This document shows positions 6,439-55,547 of a DNA stretch of 64,000 nucleotides, piece by piece; positions within the stretch are counted from its first letter, which is position 1, and each line of letters starts with the position of its first letter. The stretch is from Piedraia hortae CBS 480.64 (lineage: Eukaryota): NCBI GenBank assembly GCA_010093745.1, contig MU005961.1:310001-374000 (forward strand), read 5' to 3'. The translations under genes and the position numbers were made by a program. A model generated the notes under the pieces. The model did no database searches. It was not told where the DNA came from and was given only the letters and a program-made list of their open reading frames with translations.

Positions 6439-7271
6439 TTCAGTTGTAAACAATTATGTAACGTTTCTTATTAAATTACCGAATGTCTAGGACATAATGT
6501 GTAGGACCTTGAGGTTCGAATGAATTGCCATTGAATCAACTATATTGACAATGGCTCGCTTGCGATATCTACTTAAGATTCGAATACAACTCGCATGGCT
6601 CTGGCGGTAAGATTGTCTGCGTGGAGTCAGCCGCTTACCCTGCACACGCTATCTGCAACATCGCAACCCCAAAGTGTTTCAAGAGCAGACGTCACATAAA
6701 AGTACAAGCATTGGGAATATTGGCCTTTCATGGCCGGTGATGATTTCAAGAGCGAGCCTGCACAATGGCGAAAGCCATGGGTTGTTAATGCAAGAGTTAG
6801 TCTGCTCACAGCCAAGTAACCAACAGCATCGGGTCTCTTGTGCTCCTGTTCTCAATCAAATAATGCTTTTTGGTCGTGGGCTGTCAATATCTTTGTCTTC
6901 AGCTGTGGACTCAACAATTGATCTCAGCACGAGGCTTTGTTGCGGAAACTTGACCTTCGTAGAGAGCCTGCAAGGCAAATGTATTACAGCCACAACAATC
7001 TATCCAAGCCGGAGATTATCGACTCAATGATATAAGTCATATCAAGCGTCCATGACTTGCAGAAGACAAGAGTATTGTACATTGCAACGCCTGTGACGCA
7101 ATGTCTTCGAGCAGCAGCAATACCTACAGAGGATACAATTGTATATGTCTGATTTGATCCATTATTCACATCCTGGTGTCATTGGCAGGTCTTATAAAGT
7201 TTCCTATTGTGAAAGGTTCTCCCCACATCATCATCAAAACAACACGACAAGCCAACATTTCAGCAACGAGC

Positions 7272-8861
7272 ATGGTTCCCTCCTGCGAATTCGATTCAAA
7301 CGATTCATCTCGTATTGACTCATACCACTCGGCTTCTGAAGAGATCACTCCTGTGGAGGCAACCAACATTCTGGATACTCGCGACCAAGGAGATGCTGGC
7401 ATCTCTCGCTTGTCTGCTGTGTTGTCAGCTGGAGAATGTGCCCGATTGTCCAGACGTGTAAAGCTCCCGGAAGGGGGATTTGCTGATTCAGCCAGGAACG
7501 GAAGGATCTTTAAGGTCGGCATGGAAGAAAGCCGCGTGCTCTCCTTTCTTAAAGATGCCAACACTCATCATAACCCCGAGAAAAATGCCGAGGGAAGTCG
7601 CCTGCTCTCATTACTCAAAGACGCTGACACCAATGGTAACTCCGAAGAGTATACTGAGGATCATGGATCTCACTTGCCAGTGGACTCCCATGTAACACAA
7701 AGCAAAGATCTGGACTCAACGCTTCCGAAACAAGCATCATGCCTGGGGCTTCAATCAGACAGCGACAATCAGGACAATCATGAGTGGGCAAGAGTGCTTT
7801 ACAGCTATGACCCTTCTCCGCAAATCCCGGAGGAAGTCTCGCTTTTCAAGGGTGAGATTCTCTTGGTACTCAAAAAGGCAAAGTTCTGGTGGGAAGTAGC
7901 TAAAGAGGGTGGAGAAACAGGCCTGGCTCCAAGGAGTCACCTGGTTCTTCTGGAAAATTCATGCACTAATTCTAGCTCATCCCAGCTATTCAGTACTTAT
8001 CAAGGCTTCGATGGCGGCTTATTTCGTGCTACAAGTCGGTTCTCAATGAGGAGCATCCAGAGTCCTCGGTTGGCTTTGGTGATCCAGGCTTATCAAGCAC
8101 AGGACGATGGCGAAGTGAGCCTCCACAAAGGCCGATTTATCCAAGTGAACGACTTTTCAGGATTTTGGTGGACCGTGACCGCAAGCAGCGGCAAGACAGG
8201 TGTCGTTCCCAGCAGCCACCTGAAGCTTCTCCCTCGTGCAGGCCCAAATGCTAAGGCCAGCATTGTTCCAAATCAACCAGAGCAGGTGAAGATGCCCCGT
8301 CTGGCCCAAGTCATTCGAGGCTACACCTCAGACGAGCCCCACGAAGTTTCTGTCGGCCCAAACGAATTCATTTACGTGAATGATATGACTGGCACATGGT
8401 GGCATGCAACCAAAGGTAACAACGAAACAGGTCTTGTGGAAAGCCATCGCCTTGACTTCCCCAGGGTCTGCTCGTCCAACAGAGCTATCACACCAGGACA
8501 GCGCACTAAACATCCGCGCCGGGCCCAGGCTGGCTTGGACTACAGAGCGGAAGCTAAGCACCAAGTCCCGCTCCGCAGACACGAAATTTTTGATGTGATC
8601 GATACAGACGGGTCTTGGTCTTACGTGGTGAAGCAAAGCGGTCAGGCTGGTTTCGTCCCAACCACTCATGTCAATTTTATCGAACCACTTTTACCGGCGA
8701 CTCCGGAAGCTTCAATGGAGGATTTGCTCGTGCCTGGGGCAGAATGTGAAAACGAAAAAAAGATGGAAGAAATACAACCATCGCGTGCAGGGAAGTGTCG
8801 TTCACTATTGTCTCTACTGCGATCGAAAAAACTGACTGCAAACAGGTGGACACATCGCTGA
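7272..8861 (+). CDS. Soluble protein with four tandem Sho1-like SH3 domains
   Basis: Four repeats of A-x-V..Y..EVS..(K/H)GE..W(W/S)..GxTGxxP at about 7788-7952, 8064-8231, 8295-8460 and 8514-8681. No TM segments or introns. First ATG at 7272 in an ORF open from 7176. Confidence 0.85.
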   Translation: MVPSCEFDSNDSSRIDSYHSASEEITPVEATNILDTRDQGDAGISRLSAVLSAGECARLSRRVKLPEGGFADSARNGRIFKVGMEESRVLSFLKDANTHHNPEKNAEGSRLLSLLKDADTNGNSEEYTEDHGSHLPVDSHVTQSKDLDSTLPKQASCLGLQSDSDNQDNHEWARVLYSYDPSPQIPEEVSLFKGEILLVLKKAKFWWEVAKEGGETGLAPRSHLVLLENSCTNSSSSQLFSTYQGFDGGLFRATSRFSMRSIQSPRLALVIQAYQAQDDGEVSLHKGRFIQVNDFSGFWWTVTASSGKTGVVPSSHLKLLPRAGPNAKASIVPNQPEQVKMPRLAQVIRGYTSDEPHEVSVGPNEFIYVNDMTGTWWHATKGNNETGLVESHRLDFPRVCSSNRAITPGQRTKHPRRAQAGLDYRAEAKHQVPLRRHEIFDVIDTDGSWSYVVKQSGQAGFVPTTHVNFIEPLLPATPEASMEDLLVPGAECENEKKMEEIQPSRAGKCRSLLSLLRSKKLTANRWTHR

Positions 8862-9383
8862 CAGTCATCGTGAAGGGTGGTTTGTAGGTTATTATGGGAC
8901 TATGGGTATGAAATGGTGAGTATGCGTGCAGCGTTAGGTCTGTCACCAGCGGGTAAGTACGCTGAAAAGTTTGAGTTGTGCTACAAAGGTTGGTCCACCT
9001 TAAAAAGTTAGGTTCACATTAGTCTCTTCTCTGTACTTTCAGTTTGCTGTGCTTATAACCGACCCTAGGGCTGTCCGCTATGCAGTTAAAATTCAAAGTT
9101 GGAGGTGGTACCGTTTTGAAGGTGAATATATCGAAAATCATACCATTTCTTTGTTTCGAAGGTCCTGTTAGACTCATGGATAGACATTGCGATTACTTGG
9201 CAAGCCCCACCAGCGCCGGGATACCATGGATCTTGTCAGAACTTAACTGCTCAAGCAAGGTGCCGCCTTTGAATGTCACGGCAAAGAGGCCCACAAGTGA
9301 GGCTGCGATTGAAGCCCGACCCTTTCCCTCAACGGATTTAGGTCAAGTTCCATTTTCAGGCAGCATCATGAATTCGGGCATCC

Positions 9384-11087
9384 ATGAGGTGGCCCCAAAT
9401 AGTACTAGCACAAGCCACCTATAAATACGAGCCAATCAGAGCTCAGGATTTGCGCGCAACGCGAAGCACGCGCCTTCCATTCACGTCGCAAGTACCTCAA
9501 GGTTTCTACATTTTGACTGAGTCACCGTTTTATTCAAGGGTGATGGACACCTCCTACGATAACCTGCGTTCGCCTGAATTCGATGAATGGTCGGATTTCG
9601 AGAATGAACAGATTCAAACTTTCAGGTTTCTGCACAAACAACTACGGCAGCATTTGGGAATATCTGATGAGAAGGCCGCAAAGATACCCAGTGGAGTGTC
9701 TGCAGGTATGGCAGAGGAGTGCACGCGGGCGTCGCGATTCAATCTTCTCAGCACAGCAGACTTAGCAAAGTTTGAAAAAACCGCCCTCATAAAGCCAGTT
9801 CAAACACTTTATGCCAAACTTTGCGAAATTTACGACATGAGGAGGAATTATTCAATGGACTCTATCGTTGGTTTCGAACTCCATAACCATCCAAGTAAAC
9901 TGATGGTGGAGGACTTTGAAAAAAGCTCTAAGAAAGTCGATCTACAGTGTGTACATTCGACAGGCTTCGGCAGGTTTGGTAAGAGGCTGCTATTCTTTCT
10001 GGAATACGCCCCGGCGTACGAGCGCCCAGTAGCGAGTATTCGTAATGCACTTTCCAAACTGGCATCGAACAGCATGTCTGAGCTTGACCCAATCGAAAGG
10101 AAAGTTAAACAATCGTTGCATTATCTTTACCACCGCATGGTGGATGAACGGGTCGCATACTCGTGTATATCTACTGGAGAGGCATATCTCTTTCTTAAAG
10201 TAGACGAAGATCCGGCGAACCATCTGCTTTTTCACCTCTGTGTGCCCGCCGAGGACGCTGTGTCAGATACGCTATCTTTGCCGTCAATTATCACCCCCAT
10301 ATCCAGAATGTTATGCTTGACCTTGATTGCTACCAAAACGCCCTTGCGACCGTTGGAATGGCGTTGCCTTGCTCGATCTCTGGTCACTGATGACACAAAT
10401 TTGCCTGAAGATTACGAACCAAGCAGACCCGCTACAAAGGCCGATTTTGTGTATGGCAAGTCTCCTACGCCTGCTTTTTGTAGTATGATATGCCTGTTGA
10501 ATCTGAAGAGAGGGTTTGGCCTGGACGAGAGATGTCCCAATTATCGCCAGCACCTCAAACACTCAACAGATAACAAGCATCCAGCAGGAATTGACGGGGT
10601 TGTTGAACAGCTGTCGAAGACTATGACTTTTGAAGATTTCGGTCCCATCGTCGGAAGCGAGTGCGGGACCACAGGCACACCGTTTTGGATTCGCTGTCCC
10701 ACCTACGGATATGTTTTCATTGGCAAGGGAGCGTCAACATGGTCGTGGCCCGAGGTGTTGGACGAGAGAAAGTTTTACAACCACCTGAATGACGTACAAG
10801 GTACACTGGTTCCGGTCTTCGTGGGCACCATGTATCTGAACCCGGGGCAGCGGTACTTTTTACACGGTGTTGGCGAGATCAGTAGGTTCCTTCTCCTTGC
10901 CTGGGGTGGCAGAGAGCTCACAAGAGAAGAATGGTACGGTTCGAAAAGAAAAAAAGTCAAGTATGCTACTCAAATTATGGAGGCGTATGGAATTGAACAC
11001 AACAGTCTGAAGTGCTCCAATGCGCTTTGGAACGATGAGTTGAAGAAAGTCCTGTTGATTGACTTTCACAGATCAGAAATGCGATAG
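9384..11087 (+). CDS. Spok (spore killer)-family protein: PD-(D/E)xK nuclease-like domain, Cys/His cluster and kinase-like domain, catalytically degenerate
   Basis: Motifs WSDFENEQ, VGFELHNHP, VDLQCV..LEYAP, ISTGEAYLFLKVD..LFHLCVP, C-x3-C-x13-C-x5-H-x8-H (10479-10580), YGYVFIGKG, VQGTLVPVFVG, LLLAWGG and HNSLKCSNALW..VLLIDFHRS occur in the order known for SPOK proteins. Confidence 0.82.
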   Translation: MRWPQIVLAQATYKYEPIRAQDLRATRSTRLPFTSQVPQGFYILTESPFYSRVMDTSYDNLRSPEFDEWSDFENEQIQTFRFLHKQLRQHLGISDEKAAKIPSGVSAGMAEECTRASRFNLLSTADLAKFEKTALIKPVQTLYAKLCEIYDMRRNYSMDSIVGFELHNHPSKLMVEDFEKSSKKVDLQCVHSTGFGRFGKRLLFFLEYAPAYERPVASIRNALSKLASNSMSELDPIERKVKQSLHYLYHRMVDERVAYSCISTGEAYLFLKVDEDPANHLLFHLCVPAEDAVSDTLSLPSIITPISRMLCLTLIATKTPLRPLEWRCLARSLVTDDTNLPEDYEPSRPATKADFVYGKSPTPAFCSMICLLNLKRGFGLDERCPNYRQHLKHSTDNKHPAGIDGVVEQLSKTMTFEDFGPIVGSECGTTGTPFWIRCPTYGYVFIGKGASTWSWPEVLDERKFYNHLNDVQGTLVPVFVGTMYLNPGQRYFLHGVGEISRFLLLAWGGRELTREEWYGSKRKKVKYATQIMEAYGIEHNSLKCSNALWNDELKKVLLIDFHRSEMR

Positions 11088-11923
11088 GAAGGATTAGCGC
11101 GGTGTGGATGTTTATAACACAGATTGTTTACTAGAAATCTTCGTCCAAGTAATTTGAAGGTATTAATCCATTATCTGTCACACGAAACCTTTACCCTCGC
11201 TCGGCGAAACCTTCTGCAGGAACGGTGGAACCCAATGAATGAACTTCCGCAACGGTTCTCTGTTATCTTACATGTAAGATCACTCGCCAGGCGGTCTTGA
11301 TCAAAGCCAGAAAAATGAAACTTCAAAAAAACGGAGGTTTGACACAAAGCCTCGTTGTCATGAGCACGTGAGCATATAACGTTGAAGTCTTATCGTTCAT
11401 GAAGAGTTCTTCCGAAAACTCCTCTGACACTTCAATGCTGTGATAATACGAGGGTCCTCGGCGGGTGACTCTACCTAGTTCCTGGCCGGGTTAAGCCCCT
11501 GTCGGTAGGTCCCTAATCACCGTGGATAGTTAGTACTCGTATCTTGACACAGCGTTCCACGTCTCACTACCTCACTCTTAGTCCACACACGCACAAATTC
11601 TATACGCCAATAAGCGGTGGTCGACCGTTCGATCGATGGTGGACTACCAATGGCTAATCTTTGTTCTGGAACAATGCCTCTTTGTCCACACCACAAAAGT
11701 TCCTTAACCTCACAGTGCGCCATGATGGCTAGCCTCCCTTTGAGGCTCCCATTGTCCTTGTCTGCATAACAATACAATTGTGGCTTTGTTCAGCCTGAAG
11801 CATATAATCTCTACCCGCGACCAGTGCCTTTTCCCGGAAAACATTATCCGCATATTCGCAAGGTTTGACACCAGCGTTCAATCATTAACATCACATTCAA
11901 CAAACAACCTTGGTGTATCCACC

Positions 11924-12624
11924 ATGCCCCCAACGACACTCATGGTCAACAAACATACCAAACTAAAAAAGAACCAGGCCTTCGCACCAAGCCCCCTTCG
12001 CTTCTCACTTCCCGCTTCCCCGCGAACACCTACCAGCAAAAATCTTCCAGAAACCGACAAAATTGCCCAGTATCTAACCCAAACTGACATCCCCCTCCCC
12101 GAGTTTAAGCCCCTCAGGACGGCTCTGCAACTCCCACCCCCAACCGCCTCTAACATCGCCAAACCTTCGATCGACGAAGAACCGTCGAAACAATTGTTTC
12201 TAGAAGTCCTTATCCCCTTCAATCTTATCCCAGGCCCCGCTAACGCAACTCTAAAAGGCCACATAATGTATCGCGGCCAGCTCGAAGGCGAGAATTTCAT
12301 CCTTGCGGTCTCCATCAACACGACCGAAGAAACAATCACAACTTCAGCGAGGATAGTCAAAGGGGAAGAGGTAGCTGGCTATATCCCCTTACCACAGTCT
12401 CGTTGGGCGATAAGTCTGATGAGGAAGGGAAGATTCACTTGGGGAATAAGCCCTACGCGCGGGCGGTTAGGGGTTTTTTTCCTGAGGGGGATTTGTATCA
12501 GCTTTGTTTTCGCGAGGACGAGATTCTGGAGGTTTTGGATGGTAGTGGTTCATGGTGGGTGATGAGGGATGGAAGGGGGGTTTGTGGGGTTGCGCCGAGG
12601 GGGTGTTTTGAGGATCTTGGGTAG
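11924..12624 (+). CDS. Pro-rich protein with a C-terminal Sho1-like SH3 domain; split across two frames (unresolved intron or frameshift)
   Basis: The ATG 11924 frame is Pro-rich. A second frame open 12244-12624 ends PYARAVRGFFPEGDLYQLCFREDEILEVLDGSGSWWVMRDGRGVCGVAPRGCF (SH3). A GCTAAC..AAG branch/acceptor lies at 12239-12257. Confidence 0.6.
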
Positions 12625-13203
12625 GGGTGTGGCGAGGAGGTGGTGGAATCGCCGCTGGGGTTTGATCGGGTGGGGTATTCTTGGGTTGTGGAGGGGGAGG
12701 ATAATGATTTCTCTTAGACGATAACCATTGGTGGGTTATTCGAGATGAGTGTGGGCGAGCAGATATCTCGAGGTGTTGGGTACACCTCAGGTATAGATAC
12801 CCTCTTGACTTGTTACCTGAAACCAATACGTTTGTTTGTATTGTTGCTGTTCTCCCCTCTTTGCCCCCCTTAACCACTCCAGTCAAGATTATCAATCATT
12901 CACTCCGGAATGTGGGGCAGTCTTGGCACACGAATTCAACCTTCACTTCCCTTCCCGGTTATAGAATCACACACTCTGCTGACGAATTCACCTTTCTCAC
13001 AAACGATAGGAAAATGATCCCCTGACGCCACCAGCAAGAATTGTGTCCACTACAATAAGGATCCACTGTGTTCAATTCTCCACAGGTGCATGGAGAGGAG
13101 GCCAAATCGGGGGTGCTAACAGTCTTTGACTGTATCCAAGTTTAGTTGTATCTCTATTGAAAAAGCTTCCCTAGACGAACTTCTAGGTCTAGTTCTTTCC
13201 CGG

Positions 13204-50834: not shown

Positions 50835-52579
50835 TTATTCTTCCATGCTTTCCCATCCATCTGCCCCATCAGCTGCGGCATCTTCCTCTTCTTCCTCTTC
50901 TTCCTCTTCTTCCTCTTCTTCCTCTTCTTCCTCTTCTTCCTCTTCTTCCTCTTCTTCCTCTTCTTCCTCTTNNNNNNNNNNTCTTCCTCTTCTTCCTCTT
51001 CTTCCTCTTCTTCCTCTTCTTCCTCTTCTTCCTCTTCTTCCTCTTCTTCCTCTTCTTCCTCTTCTTCCTCTTTCCCTTCCCCTTCTCCTTCTCCTTCTTC
51101 GTCGTCGTCATTGTCATCATTTTTGACTGCCACCAGCTTCTCCTCCTTGCTAGTCAGCGTCTCCATGGCAAAGGCCTCTCTGACAGCCTTGTTGGTGCTT
51201 GTATCCCACACCTGCACCGTTCCCGTGCTGCCTGCGACTGCCAGACTAAATGCAACTTCCGGGTCGGGTGCAAAGTCGAGGGAAAAGACTTTGCCGACGC
51301 CCAGATCTCTACTGAGGACCATAGCCGGTCCCTGTTCGTTTACTCTCCACAGCTTGATTGTCTTGTCCCCTGCGCCCGTAGCGATGTATCCCTTTAGCTT
51401 ACTGTTGATCGCAAATGCCGCCAGATTCTCCTCGTGCGCCTGTAGCCGCCAGAGGGGTTTTGCCTTTTCCGGCGTCGACGGCAGCGTTCTCGAGTCAAAG
51501 GCATGTAGCATTCCCCTCTCCGTAGCCACCATGAACACGTTTTCGTCGTGCGGATCCCACTTGACCTGCTCCACATCGCTCTCCACACCCCACCGCGGTA
51601 CATTTGCGTCTGGCGCGCGCATATCCGCGGCAGCAGCTGTGCGGTCGTAGGAACCCGACAGCAGCACCGACGGATGCTTTGCATGCCAGGCGAGACTGCA
51701 GACTTTATCCGTGTGGTACGAGTAACTGTGGGCGGCGTTGCAAGTATTGAGATCCCACAATTTAACCGTACAATCCGCCGACGCGGAGCCTAAAAGGTTC
51801 CTGTGCGCGCGATTCGCACTCAACGCCAGCACCGACGACGTGTGAAAAGCAGCATTAACGTCCTTTGCCCTTTTCTTCTTCTTTTTCCTTCCTGATGCCT
51901 CCTGATCAACCTCCTGCTGACCCAGAACCGCAGCTGGATAGATCCCATCAATCACATCCAGATTCCAAACCTCGATCTCAGGATCCATGGTTCCCACCGC
52001 CGCGAAATTCCCCACCTCAGCAGCCGTATTAGGCGTCGAGTTCAACCATTCCACACAGATCGGCAGGGCCGGCAACATGACATCGTGGTGGACATATAAA
52101 TTCGCCACATCATCCTCATACACATACACTTCCAACTGCGCGACAGCATCTTCCATCCTCGTCGCAAGTAGGAGATTATCCGTCGGCAGAATCTGCAACT
52201 CCTCCCTCTCCTCCTCATCCGTCTCGCCCCCCTCAGCCGGTAGGCTGAGGTACGGATCTTCATCCTGATCGCCATAGTACGCGAGTCCTTTAATCGTCCC
52301 AAAAATCCCCTCCCCATCACCCTCCCCCCCGGCCTCTGGCTCGCTGTCGTAATGCTCCATATCATACTCTGCCAGTTCAGGATCAACCTCCGCTGGAGAC
52401 GTAATCCTGGTTCCCGAAAGTGCCTTTCTTGCCTCCTCAAGGCCTTCTTTCGCATCATCAAGTTCGAGTTTCGCTAATTTTGAAATTCGGCTGAACTCGC
52501 CCTCATCGAAGACATATTTCGTCGGCAAAGCAGCGGCATGCCCTCGCGGGACCCAGACTGTGCTTGTTATCATTGCCAT
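50835..52579 (-). CDS. PWP1: Periodic tryptophan protein Pwp1 (WD40) with a poly-Glu tail interrupted by a 10-N gap
   Basis: MIT...WVPRG, DPY, NLYVHHDVML and WD repeats. The correct frame after the gap reads EEE..DAAADGADGWESMEE* with TAA at 50835-50837. Confidence 0.93.
50881..51070. repeat. (TCTTCTTCC)n coding microsatellite (poly-Glu of Pwp1) spanning an N gap at 50972-50981
   Basis: Perfect 9-bp unit on both sides of the gap. Confidence 0.95.
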
Positions 52580-52618
52580 TAGCCGTATGTGTTGTTCTCA
52601 AACTGGTATTCTTTTTTT

Positions 52619-52963
52619 NNNNNNNNNNNNNNNNNNNNNNNNNNNNNNNNNNNNNNNNNNNNNNNNNNNNNNNNNNNNNNNNNNNNNNNNNNNNNNNNNN
52701 NNNNNNNNNNNNNNNNNNNNNNNNNNNNNNNNNNNNNNNNNNNNNNNNNNNNNNNNNNNNNNNNNNNNNNNNNNNNNNNNNNNNNNNNNNNNNNNNNNNN
52801 NNNNNNNNNNNNNNNNNNNNNNNNNNNNNNNNNNNNNNNNNNNNNNNNNNNNNNNNNNNNNNNNNNNNNNNNNNNNNNNNNNNNNNNNNNNNNNNNNNNN
52901 NNNNNNNNNNNNNNNNNNNNNNNNNNNNNNNNNNNNNNNNNNNNNNNNNNNNNNNNNNNNNNN
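52619..52963. other. Assembly gap (345 N) hiding the PRP16 5' end
   Basis: Run of N. Confidence 1.
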
Positions 52964-55547
52964 CTGGGCGGAGGAGGAACTCCTCGAAAAAAAACTCGCT
53001 GCCCGTTCTTTGCTCAACCCCAGACAAATCCAAAAGAAGAGAGATCATGATGCGTGGGAGGCGAATCGCATGCTAGCGAGTAATGTCGCGCAGTTAAAGG
53101 AAGCGGGGGGGTTTGATGTTGATGAGACAGAGGATGTGAGGGTTCATGTTCTTGTTCATGATTTGAAGCCGCCGTTTTTGGAGGGGAAGAGGGATTTTAC
53201 GAGGCAGAAGGACCCGATTAGTGCGGTGAAGGATCCGAAGAGTGATATGGCGGTTTTTGCGAGGAGGGGGAGTAATGTTGTGAAGGAGAGGAGGGTGGTG
53301 AAAGAGAGGAAGAGACAAGCGAAGGAGGCGACGGGAATTGTGGGTACGGTGTTGGGGGATATTGTTGGGGCGAGGGAGGAAGTCAAAGGGAAGGAGGTGG
53401 AGGTGGAGATGGAGAAGGGTATGGAGTTGGTAAAGGAGGCTCAGTCGGAGTTTTCGAGGACAAGGAGTTTGAAGAAACAGAGGGAATTTCTCCCGGCGTT
53501 TGCGGTTAGGGAGGAGATTTTAAGGGTCATTCGGGAAAATCAGGTTACGGTTGTTGTTGGTCAGACGGGGTCAGGGAAAACTACGCAGTTGACGCAGTTC
53601 TTGTATGAAGATGGATATGCTAGGGATGGACAGCTGATTGGGTGTACACAGCCCCGTCGTGTGGCGGCCATGTCTGTTGCGAAACGTGTGGCTGAGGAGA
53701 TGGAGGTTCCGCTTGGGTCTACGGTTGGGTATGCGATTCGATTTGAGGATTGCACTTCTAAATCGACGGCGATCAAGTACATGACTGACGGTGTGCTGCT
53801 AAGAGAGTCGCTGACGAATTCAGACCTGGACCAGTATTCGTGTATCATCATGGATGAAGCTCATGAGCGTGCGCTGAATACGGATGTGCTGATGGGTTTG
53901 ATTAAAAAGGTCCTGGCCCGTCGTCGGGATTTGAAGCTCATTGTGACTTCTGCTACTATGAATTCTGAACGATTCTCCCGATTCTACGGTGGTGCACCAG
54001 AGTTTACCATTCCCGGAAGGACGTTTCCGGTGGATATACAGTACAGTCGATCGCCGTGCGAGGATTACGTCGATGCAGCGGTGCGTCAAACGCTTGCCAT
54101 CCACGTCTCGCAGCCAGCAGGAGATATATTGGTCTTCATGACGGGACAAGAAGACATTGAAGTGACGTGTGAGCTACTTCACGAGCGGCTAGCAGCTTTG
54201 AATGAACCACCGCCTCTACTCGTCCTGCCCATCTACTCCCAGATGCCAGCCGATCTACAATCCAAAATCTTCGACCGCGCACCAGCGGGCGTACGCAAAG
54301 TAATCGTCGCCACGAACATTGCCGAAACGTCTCTCACCGTCGACGGGATCATGTACGTAGTCGACAGCGGCTTCAGCAAACTCAAAGTGTTCAACCCACG
54401 CATGGGGATGGACACACTCCAAATAACACCCATCTCGCAAGCCAACGCCGCCCAACGCGCTGGTCGAGCGGGTCGCACAGGCCCTGGAAGAGCCTTCCAC
54501 CTCTTCACCGAGCGCGCAATGCGGGAAGAGCTGTACCAATCCCCCATCCCCGAAATCCAACGCACCAACCTCTCCAACACCGTCCTCCTCCTAAAATCCC
54601 TCGGCGTCAAAGAACTCCTCGATTTCGACTTCCTCGACTCCCCACCTCAAGAAACCATAACCTCCTCCCTTTACGACCTCTGGGCCTTGGGCGCCCTCTC
54701 CAACACGGGGAACCTAACCCCCTTAGGTCACCAAATGACCACCTTCCCCATGGACCCCACGCTCGCCAAACTCCTCATCCTCTCCTCCACGCCCGAATAC
54801 TCCTGCTCCGAAGAAATCCTCACCATCGTCGCCATGCTAAGCGTGCCAAGCGTCTGGTATCGCCCATCAAACACCCCCCAATCGCAACCCTCCCCGCACG
54901 AAAAATTCATGGTCCACGACTCCGACCACCTCTCCCTCTTACTAGTCTACAACGCCTGGTCCTCCGCCCCCAACCGCGAAAAGTTCTGCACCCAAAACAA
55001 CCTCCACCCCAAATCGCTCTCGCGGGCATCTGAAATCCGAACCCAACTCCTCAGCATAATGCAAACGCAATCCCTCCCCCTCCTCTCCAGCGGAACGAAC
55101 CTCGAAGTCGTGCGAAAGTGCATCTGCACGGGTTTCTTCCACCAGGCTGCAAGGAGAAAGGGGTTGGCGGGGGAGTATGTTAACCTGAGGACGAGTGTGG
55201 GGATGAGGTTACATCCGACAAGTGCGTTGTACAATGCGGGTGATCCGGCGGATTTCGTGGTTTATCATGAATTGGTATTGACGAAGAGGGAGTATATGGC
55301 TACCGTGACGGCGGTGGAGGTGGAATGGCTTGTTGAGCTTGGGAGGGTGTTTTATGGGGTGAGGACTCCTAATGGGACGGTGGATCCTAGGCCGGCGCTG
55401 GAGAGGGAGTTTGAGAGAGATAGGGTGCTGATGGAGGGGGGAGGGAGGGTTGAGGGGGAGAGGGAGGGGAGGGATGGAGGTAAAGAGAAGACGAGGAGGG
55501 TTAAAGGGTCGGCTGTTGTTAGGCCTTTGAAGAGGGGGAGGAGGTAG
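52964..55547 (+). CDS. PRP16: Pre-mRNA splicing DEAH helicase Prp16 (5' part in the gap)
   Basis: [66 protein letters not shown] and QRAGRAGR. Confidence 0.96.

Follow-up and report, generated by a model that had tools for sequence, protein, structure and literature searches.

A compact Spok-family homologue of Piedraia hortae in which the canonical catalytic residues of both the nuclease-like and the kinase-like half are replaced

Among the single-gene meiotic drivers of fungi, the Spok genes are understood best; what becomes of them after drive is poorly known, and so is the role of the hundreds of Spok homologues that do not drive. The features described by Vogan 2019 for SPOK3 of Podospora anserina together with 282 homologues are a coiled coil at the N-terminus, a PD-(D/E)XK motif with ExK at its end, a helix after it with a conserved Gln, a C-x3-C-x13-C-x5-H-x7-H cluster and a Kdo/ELK-like kinase with the catalytic Asp D667. 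The exchange K240A in SPOK3 abolishes killing, and the exchange D667A yields a protein that has lost resistance and is toxic (Vogan 2019). The nuclease Lys was also found to be required for killing by Urquhart & Gardiner 2022, who report that mutations of K247 and D680A in SPOK1 likewise abolish the respective activities. Here we describe a Spok-like gene of Piedraia hortae CBS 480.64, located on the forward strand of a stretch of 64,000 nucleotides (NCBI GenBank assembly GCA_010093745.1, contig MU005961.1, positions 310,001 to 374,000), which is called the window in the following and to which all coordinates refer. In this gene both the nuclease Lys and the kinase Asp are replaced and the reading frame is intact. 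We regard it, with a probability of about 0.55, as a retained double pseudo-enzyme, i.e., a compact (~514 amino acids) and highly derived member of the Spok family in which neither half retains canonical catalysis.

The protein belongs to the family of ascomycete Spok homologues. A phmmer search of 1.84 billion representatives gave 1090 matches with E<=1e-3 (656 with E<=1e-10 and 62 with E<=1e-30), most of them with two matched stretches. The matches are typically ascomycete proteins of 700-800 amino acids (sources named are Meristemomyces, Penicillium, Metarhizium, Claviceps, Lipomyces, Trichophyton and Aspergillus), and the best non-self match (E 7.5e-60) is 42% identical. In tblastn, residues 78-665 of relative P0007 aligned across both domains (E 7e-52), and relative P0004 aligned with its residues 101-321 (E 4e-16) and 443-640 (E 6e-42). 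A search seeded with a Metarhizium relative found 435 proteins at E<=1e-10, and nearly all of the best 120 of these 435 carry the precomputed assignment PF27653, which is SPOK2_N, "Spore killer 2 N-terminal domain", according to the protein Atlas. The structure search of the Atlas placed the Piedraia protein itself on a SPOK2_N cluster with a template modelling (TM) score of 0.55, which meets the Atlas bar for a name. Furthermore, the family consensus matches the features published for SPOK3 (coiled coil, ExK, conserved-Gln helix, Cys/His cluster and Kdo/ELK-like kinase). Note that the tie to the tested drivers consists of Pfam SPOK2_N in the relatives and of the published motifs, not of a direct pairwise alignment with a SPOK protein. 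The local Pfam scan of the Piedraia protein, with a Pfam copy that does not include PF27653, returned only Kdo (PF06293) with an E-value of 0.064, under the cut-off, and a sequence search of PDB chains gave nothing significant, the best E-value being 1.5 for a local alignment with human Cdc7.

The active sites were compared in two alignments, one made with MAFFT from the Piedraia protein and 149 matches, the other made with hmmalign from 274 homologues, 7 of which are redundant cluster members. In both, the Lys of the nuclease motif ExK is replaced by Ala (A209). Lys occupies this column in 103 of 111 ungapped sequences in the MAFFT alignment and in 217 of 226 in the hmmalign alignment, where the rest are Arg (3), Gln (2), Glu (2), Asn (1) and Ile (1), and Ala occurs in 0. 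Likewise in both alignments, the catalytic Asp of the kinase motif HxD is replaced by Ser (S541). This column holds Asp in 146 of 147 ungapped sequences with MAFFT and in 271 of 272 with hmmalign, the exception there being Asn in P0020. The local alignment with human Cdc7, not significant on its own, also has S541 under the D of HRD. Thus, neither of the two residues that a functional SPOK driver has at these positions is present, and the Piedraia protein is the only one among 275 aligned sequences to lack both the nuclease Lys and the kinase Asp. The step from a Lys codon (AAR) to GCC takes at least two changes, in positions 1-2, and that from an Asp codon (GAY) to AGT takes two. A second public run from another study (run X2) is identical to the assembly over 9546-11102, with 0 differences, and therefore an error of assembly does not account for the two odd codons.

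The replacement in the nuclease motif extends to its neighbours. The family octet EYKPPHKL reads EYAPAYER in the Piedraia protein, with 5 of 8 residues changed; the family has His in 208 of 221 sequences at the position of Y212 and Lys in 209 of 221 at that of E213. In the following helix, the conserved Gln (238 of 246 ungapped) is Tyr247. The metal ligands of the nuclease, D186 (Asp in 210 of 227 ungapped) and E207, survive, unlike the Lys and its neighbours. The kinase half still has its nucleotide- and Mg-binding set (G428, G431, K448, E461, N546, D560) as well as H539, and only the catalytic base has disappeared. K448 is invariant in the family (272 of 272 ungapped), and three others of the set are nearly so, with Glu in 272 of 273 at E461, Asn in 267 of 271 at N546 and Asp in 269 of 270 at D560. 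Directly after the Phe of the glycine-rich loop stands W435 (10686-10688), at a position with Lys, Arg or Gln in the family (Lys in 233 of 273 ungapped), which is another unusual replacement in the nucleotide-binding region.

These results bear on a preliminary description of the locus, which had been made from the DNA letters. Its identification of a Spok homologue with the domain order nuclease-like block, Cys/His cluster and kinase-like block agrees with the phmmer and tblastn matches across both halves, with PF27653 in the relatives and with the predicted folds. Its reading of EYK as EYA and of HxD as HNS was confirmed by the two independent alignments, in which A209 and S541 occupy the Lys and Asp columns themselves, and its claim of several substitutions per codon holds for both codons. 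The description had also noted that the QxxxY-type helix reads HYLYHRM. This counts as a change for the Gln and not for the Tyr, a position that is not conserved across the family (Val in 126, Tyr in 89).

By sequence and model, the protein keeps the restriction-endonuclease-like fold, the Cys/His cluster and the kinase fold. An AlphaFold2 model of the whole protein, built from a 118-sequence alignment, has a predicted local distance difference test score (pLDDT) of 83.1 and a predicted TM score of 0.82. The remnant of "domain 1" reaches a pLDDT of ~90 at residues 61-100 and 121-160, and the N-terminal 297 residues modelled alone have a pLDDT of 83.8. A Foldseek search of the PDB with this N-terminal model gave no match with E<=0.001 (the top row was BpuSI with E 0.14). 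In a wide, exhaustive VIA-align search, the nuclease domain of the type IIG enzyme BpuSI (3s1s) came first with Z 9.8 (148 aligned residues, root-mean-square deviation 3.9), followed by HsdR of EcoR124I (2w00, Z 7.0), HsdR of Vibrio vulnificus (3h1t, Z 6.9) and many further chains of the restriction-endonuclease fold with Z 4-7. A Z of 7-8 is common as a best score with this method, and only the BpuSI match exceeds that level. Note that 3h1t is also the best HHpred match of SPOK3 (Vogan 2019). The Cys/His cluster is fully kept, with spacings that are the family mode (x3 in 262 of 262 ungapped, x13 in 260 of 263, x5 in 264 of 264, x8 in 179 of 263); the final spacing of SPOK3 is x7 (Vogan 2019). 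For the kinase, Foldseek gave at least 500 PDB matches with E<=0.001, and the top 50 are protein kinases (CK2, PKA, CaMKII) with ~160 aligned columns and E ~1e-5. Judged from sequence and model, the C-terminal half is a predicted nucleotide-binding pseudokinase: it has the kinase fold, the catalytic residue is gone and the nucleotide-binding residues are kept.

Table 1. Features of the Spok-like locus of P. hortae (coordinates in the window; residue numbers refer to the 567-codon frame)
Feature	Coordinates	Strand	Remarks
Longest mechanical open reading frame	9384..11087	+	567 codons plus stop
TATA-like box, putative, TATAAATA	9420..9427	+	116 bp 5' of ATG 9543, within the longer frame
Probable coding sequence from M54 onwards (514 aa)	9543..11087	+	equals public gene model P0002
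Remnant of Spok "domain 1", residues 54-170	9543..9893	+	first ~90 profile positions of the family missing
PD-(D/E)XK restriction-endonuclease-like fold, residues ~180-335	9921..10388	+	AlphaFold2 domain model, VIA-align
D186 (GAT), first acidic residue of the nuclease, kept	9939..9941	+	Asp in 210 of 227 ungapped
E207-Y-A209, nuclease ExK, Glu kept, Lys replaced by Ala (GCC, 10008-10010)	10002..10010	+	both alignments
PAYER at family PPHKL (H212Y, K213E, L214R)	10011..10025	+	alignments
HYLYHRM helix, Gln of QxxxY is Tyr247	10119..10139	+	Gln in 238 of 246 ungapped
Short inter-domain linker	10389..10466	+	anchor-column spacing 40 residues
C366-x3-C370-x13-C384-x5-H390-x8-H399 cluster, fully kept	10479..10580	+	alignments
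Kinase-like domain, residues 405-567	10596..11084	+	ends 7 residues past the DFG-like IDF; pLDDT >90
Glycine-rich loop GTTGTPF	10665..10685	+	G428, G431, F434 kept
K448, beta3-type ATP-binding Lys, kept	10725..10727	+	Lys in 272 of 272 ungapped
E461, alphaC-type Glu, kept	10764..10766	+	Glu in 272 of 273 ungapped
SKRKKVK, basic cluster resembling a nuclear localisation signal, residues 520-526	10941..10961	+	partly within an insertion specific to this protein (516-521)
H539-N-S541, kinase HxD, catalytic Asp replaced by Ser (AGT, 11004-11006)	10998..11006	+	both alignments
N546, catalytic-loop Asn (Mg ligand in kinases), kept	11019..11021	+	Asn in 267 of 271 ungapped
I559-D560-F561, DFG-like, kept	11058..11066	+	Asp in 269 of 270 ungapped
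C-terminal tail HRSEMR plus stop	11067..11087	+	7 residues past D560

The Piedraia protein is the most derived member of the family sampled. Among the 69 highly conserved columns (>=90%), it misses 22, 4 of which are gaps, while the 206 relatives scored for the same columns have a median of 1.5 missed, a 95th percentile of 8 and a maximum of 17. It retains 12 of 21 of these columns in the N-terminal/nuclease part, 10 of 12 in the Cys cluster and 25 of 32 in the kinase (35 of 44 for kinase and Cys cluster together). Its terminal branch is the longest in FastTree phylogenies of the C-terminal half (263 tips; 1.58 substitutions per site versus a median of 0.23) and of both halves (217 tips; 2.21 versus 0.28), and the sisters found for it there (P0003 and P0038) are weakly supported (0.79).

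Three segments of the canonical proteins are missing or shortened, and all these length changes are in frame. The N-terminal coiled coil with the TTxxExLxxCH block (profile positions 1-91) found no match in the six frames of 7000-9800 or in the open reading frame (ORF), and tblastn with eight full-length relatives found nothing of an upstream exon or N-terminal remnant beyond the ORF. Counted from M54, 14 residues precede the anchor equivalent to W68, versus a family median of 95, which is shorter than in all 199 homologues measured. The linker of 40 residues compares with a family median of 133.5 (i.e., it is ~95 residues shorter), and only 1 of 250 homologues has one as short or shorter. The C-terminal tail has 7 residues versus a median of 38 (26% Lys plus Arg), and a tail of this length or less is again seen in 1 of 263 homologues. 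The insertion bearing the basic cluster SKRKKVK is absent from at least 137 of 149 relatives; that this cluster may serve as a nuclear signal in place of the lost basic tail is speculation from sequence.

The 567 codons of the frame contain 0 in-frame stops, and the remaining five frames of the same interval have 16-33 stops each; the chance of an open frame of equal length and composition is ~1e-13. Translation probably starts at ATG 9543 (M54), because the public gene model of the locus (NCBI/UniRef/nr) has 514 amino acids and this start, residues 1-53 of the long ORF have a pLDDT below 50, the similarity of full-length relatives in tblastn sets in near residue 65, and the TATA-like TATAAATA lies upstream of this ATG inside the longer frame. 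The uninterrupted frame of the preliminary description was thus recovered, and its positions for EYA, HYLYHRM, the Cys/His cluster, HNS and IDF proved exact; the family alignments agree with it that the cluster and IDF are kept, and the profile comparisons agree that the coiled coil is absent.

A comparison of the two halves across the family suggests in which order activity is lost. All four key columns are present in 219 homologues. Both halves are intact in 196 of these, the nuclease D/E/K triad is disrupted and the kinase Asp retained in 22, the opposite state occurs in 0, and in 1 (P0020 from Aspergillus niger) both are disrupted. Together with the Piedraia protein, there are two losses of the kinase Asp, both on a disrupted nuclease (Fisher p 0.011 with the Piedraia protein included). 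This 22:0 asymmetry suggests a toxin-antidote logic in which the antidote cannot go while the toxin works, and it is a lead rather than a result. For the Piedraia gene, the pattern suggests that the nuclease was lost first and the kinase second. If the asymmetry holds in an unbiased sample, toxin-antidote logic would act as a constraint on the family as a whole, beyond the genes of Podospora.

The window is densely filled with ordinary genes, namely genes for an SH3-repeat protein, a lipoyl-domain protein, hydrolases, GST, a Y-family (IMS-type) DNA polymerase, Swc3, HSP90, Sec1, HisRS, an M20 peptidase, a protein kinase, a WD40 protein, a DEAH helicase, a SET/MYND protein, Arp2/3 p34 and an SNase-domain protein. 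Across its 64 kb, no transposase, Starship-type or HET-domain ORF was found, and tblastn found no second Spok-like sequence. The gene has no signature of repeat-induced point mutation (RIP; TpA/ApT 0.66, (CpA+TpG)/(ApC+GpT) 1.21). Between 6000 and 14000, the only flanking repeat is one 22-nt pair with 86% identity (direct repeat, 8117-8138 and 10426-10447, between the SH3 gene and the Spok-like linker), which is probably due to chance. Directly upstream on the same strand lies an ORF of 529 amino acids (7272-8861) with SH3_1 (E 7e-27; best stretch 174-220, a weaker one at 272-317). An ORF of 114 codons without a Pfam match (9080-9424) directly precedes the long ORF and overlaps its beginning, and downstream there is an ORF of 212 amino acids (11924-12562), also without a Pfam match. 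Two runs of N, at 50972-50981 (10) and 52619-52963 (345), occur in the window, the longer of which interrupts the 5' part of the DEAH-box helicase ORF (52587-55547).

Run X2 is only guessed to be RNA and may be DNA. It yields patchy contigs in this region, among them one of 1559 bases that is colinear with 9546-11102 and has no joint. A contig of 429 bases lies on 8988-9416 and could belong to a separate transcript, to the 3' untranslated region of the SH3 gene or to nothing, and one of 919 bases (11749-12667) covers the 212-amino-acid ORF with one differing letter; nothing lies on 9417-9545 or 11103-11748. The 1559-base contig would fit an unspliced transcript. As these contigs show neither starts, ends nor level, they were used for confirmation of the sequence only.

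What, then, does the gene encode at present? We infer that a retained double pseudo-enzyme describes it best. Such a protein would be unable to cut DNA like the SPOK toxins or to transfer phosphate like the SPOK antidote. Folding, the metal cluster and nucleotide binding are probably preserved, and the protein would act by binding, as a scaffold or sensor, instead of by catalysis. Nuclease activity would have been lost first. We propose that the kinase antidote was then no longer needed and the catalytic Asp was therefore free to change as the second step; the coiled coil, the long linker and the basic tail, which are the disordered segments of canonical Spoks, would have been lost in frame. 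Changes concentrated in the nuclease motif, untouched binding sets and an open frame fit long persistence after the loss of catalysis. Stops make up 5.9% of the non-synonymous single-nucleotide changes possible in the ORF, so that an open frame tolerates ~50 unconstrained replacements, or ~0.1 per site, and the terminal branch exceeds this more than 10-fold. With 1.58 substitutions per site on this branch, most of it must therefore have been under frame-preserving selection. The preliminary description had spoken of a disarmed drive gene retained as a pseudo-enzyme. Its second part is supported, as both catalytic residues are gone and the frame is intact despite deep divergence; descent from a driver is not.

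Several points weigh against this reading. No orthologue or close paralogue was found in the collections, where the best non-self match is 42% identical, and a word-index homologue search at 90% clustering, which would reveal relatives of 50-90% identity, returned only the protein itself. (A word-index search with the 118-sequence profile also returned only the protein itself and is uninformative, having scored only the 8000 candidates that share most words.) Present-day constraint on the gene is a presumption, and so is its expression; no run recorded as RNA is listed for the locus. The difference in column retention between the N-terminal and C-terminal parts is not significant (p 0.078), and some of the "changed" columns may be alignment shifts; Q409, for example, is kept in MAFFT and changed in hmmalign. 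The order-of-loss pattern is weak (Fisher p 0.105 with the Piedraia protein left out and 0.011 with it), and the homologues are a biased and non-independent sample (the 150 most like the Piedraia protein and the 120 most like P0005). Enzymes of the PD-(D/E)XK type sometimes rely on a different residue or on a Lys contributed from elsewhere. Finally, the exchange of the kinase Asp for Ala had no visible effect in yeast in 4 of 6 Fusarium homologues tested, and the authors remark that some homologues may depend little on this Asp (Genetics 2025).

The last two points would also suit an enzyme with non-canonical chemistry, in which the kinase works without the usual base or catalyses another nucleotide-dependent reaction and the nuclease recruits its Lys from elsewhere. 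The binding residues G428, G431, K448, E461, N546 and D560 as well as D186 and E207 are all in place, and several supposed pseudokinases later proved active. We consider this unlikely nevertheless: Asp in 271 of 272 and Lys in 217 of 226 homologues speak for strong family constraint, the mutations of these residues in SPOK3 (K240A, D667A) and SPOK1 (K247, D680A) abolish the respective activities (Vogan 2019; Urquhart & Gardiner 2022), and in the Piedraia protein the adjacent His-Lys and the helix Gln are replaced too and Trp stands for K435 beside the glycine loop. The gene might also be a young pseudogene that evolved fast while functional, lost its function recently and has not yet acquired a stop or frameshift. 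Fast evolution while active followed by recent death may be compatible with the open-frame evidence as well. The gene misses more conserved columns (22 of 69) than any sampled relative (at most 17), has the longest branch, lacks both catalytic residues and three family segments, and has no orthologue that could show constraint; moreover, Spok-like genes are often pseudogenes (Grognet 2014). However, 0 stops over 514-567 codons contrast with 16-33 in the other frames, and all length changes are in frame. The losses focus on the nuclease motif (5 of 8 residues), the Lys and Asp codons need at least two changes each, and neither the ATP-binding set nor the Cys/His cluster is affected, a pattern that uniform recent decay would not yield. 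Neither a RIP signature nor a transposon insertion is seen. Recent death seems improbable.

The remaining alternatives concern the history and the use of the gene. It may never have been a driver, coming from a non-driving, single-copy part of the family with a native role that became specialised or partly lost. Most Spok homologues are not known to drive. The gene is single in the window, among genes such as those for HSP90, the Y-family (IMS-type) DNA polymerase, HisRS, Sec1, Arp2/3 p34 and the DEAH helicase and without a transposon, Starship-type or HET gene, single-copy homologues of clade I are probably not drivers (Vogan 2019), and toxin-antidote behaviour was possibly co-opted separately (Genetics 2025). 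On the other hand, the 22:0 asymmetry suggests that toxin-antidote logic is widespread in the family. We hold this origin to be possible, at less than even odds; it concerns ancestry and not the present mechanism, and is compatible with a retained double pseudo-enzyme. More doubtful is full domestication of a toxin-antidote gene, in which the nuclease died, the kinase base was lost, the coiled coil, the linker and the nuclear-targeting tail were trimmed and the host kept the protein for a binding role, e.g., nucleotide-dependent sensing or the suppression in trans of Spok drivers that arrive from outside. A decoy or suppressor in the narrower sense, as suggested in the preliminary description, would be a disarmed copy that neutralises active Spok toxins of the same species by binding the toxins or their target, by analogy with wtf genes of fission yeast that encode only the antidote. 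Surfaces for interaction may survive, given that the fold, the Cys/His cluster and the residues for nucleotide binding are all retained; wild-type Spok2 protects kinase-mutant Spok2 in trans, implying interplay between Spoks (Grognet 2014), and the wtf family holds both drivers and suppressors (PMC7032740). This role is nonetheless very unlikely here, as there is no Spok paralogue within the 64-kb window and, at 21-40% identity to every sampled relative, no evident partner, and as the protein lacks both the coiled coil that is predicted to dimerise in SPOK3 and the kinase Asp that known Spok resistance needs (Vogan 2019).

If the double pseudo-enzyme is under selection, it would point to a non-catalytic use for Spok-type proteins and could be a ready-made non-toxic scaffold for structural or binding studies; if it is a slowly decaying relic, it is an ordinary gene. 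In either case the locus combines by nature what the laboratory changes K240A and D667 would give together, and a long frame and the folds are kept. No account of a Spok homologue devoid of both residues turned up in the literature searched, the alignment of catalytic residues in the supplement of the 2025 Genetics paper lying outside these searches; such Spok forms have already been seen but not studied. The Piedraia gene is a clean case of a naturally double-dead, trimmed Spok homologue, but a single orphan on a long branch.

Compared with SPOK1-4 of P. anserina, the Piedraia protein has the same order of a domain of unknown function, a PD-(D/E)XK nuclease-like domain, a Cys/His cluster and a Kdo/ELK-like kinase (Vogan 2019), the same cluster spacing C-x3-C-x13-C-x5-H-x(7/8)-H, and a kinase that ends soon after the DFG-like motif. 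It differs in having Ala at the position of K240 and Ser at that of D667 of SPOK3, in the absence of the N-terminal coiled coil and the basic C-terminal tail, in a linker ~95 residues shorter and in total size (514 amino acids versus 734 for Spok1; Grognet 2014). Within the window it stands alone among housekeeping genes, whereas Spok-like genes of Podospora are found near transposons (Grognet 2014). Spok pseudogenes (SpokPsi1 and others) are likewise Spok-family sequences that no longer kill or protect; except for its short 5' end, the Piedraia ORF is free of their defects. The antidote-only wtf genes of Schizosaccharomyces pombe offer an analogy, not a homology, as members of a drive family that lost the poison and persist without driving (PMC7032740). 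The wtf suppressors are, however, unrelated in protein and mechanism and keep the antidote, whereas the Piedraia protein has lost its antidote residue too. ATP-binding pseudokinases such as HER3 keep the glycine loop, the beta3 Lys, the alphaC Glu, the Asn and the DFG Asp, with the Asp of HxD replaced. The Piedraia kinase resembles them in this respect and differs from them in being Kdo/ELK-like, truncated after DFG and fused to a dead nuclease, and its nucleotide binding is a prediction. Within the family, no sampled homologue other than the A. niger protein P0020 (GAQ39718.1) shares the loss of the kinase Asp. P0020 has Asn there, a one-step change, and its nuclease is also disrupted (E207 to Gly, D186 to Glu). 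This protein is not closely related to that of Piedraia, keeps the nuclease Lys, and is of full length (713 amino acids) with coiled coil, long linker and basic tail. A further parallel is provided by the resistance-only Spok alleles (SPOK3 K240A and Spok2 of strain A), in which the nuclease half is inactive and the frame intact, as in the Piedraia gene (Vogan 2019), and natural forms resembling them make up ~10% of the sampled homologues (22 of 219). These alleles keep the kinase Asp and with it resistance; the Piedraia gene, whose Asp is gone too, is one step further.

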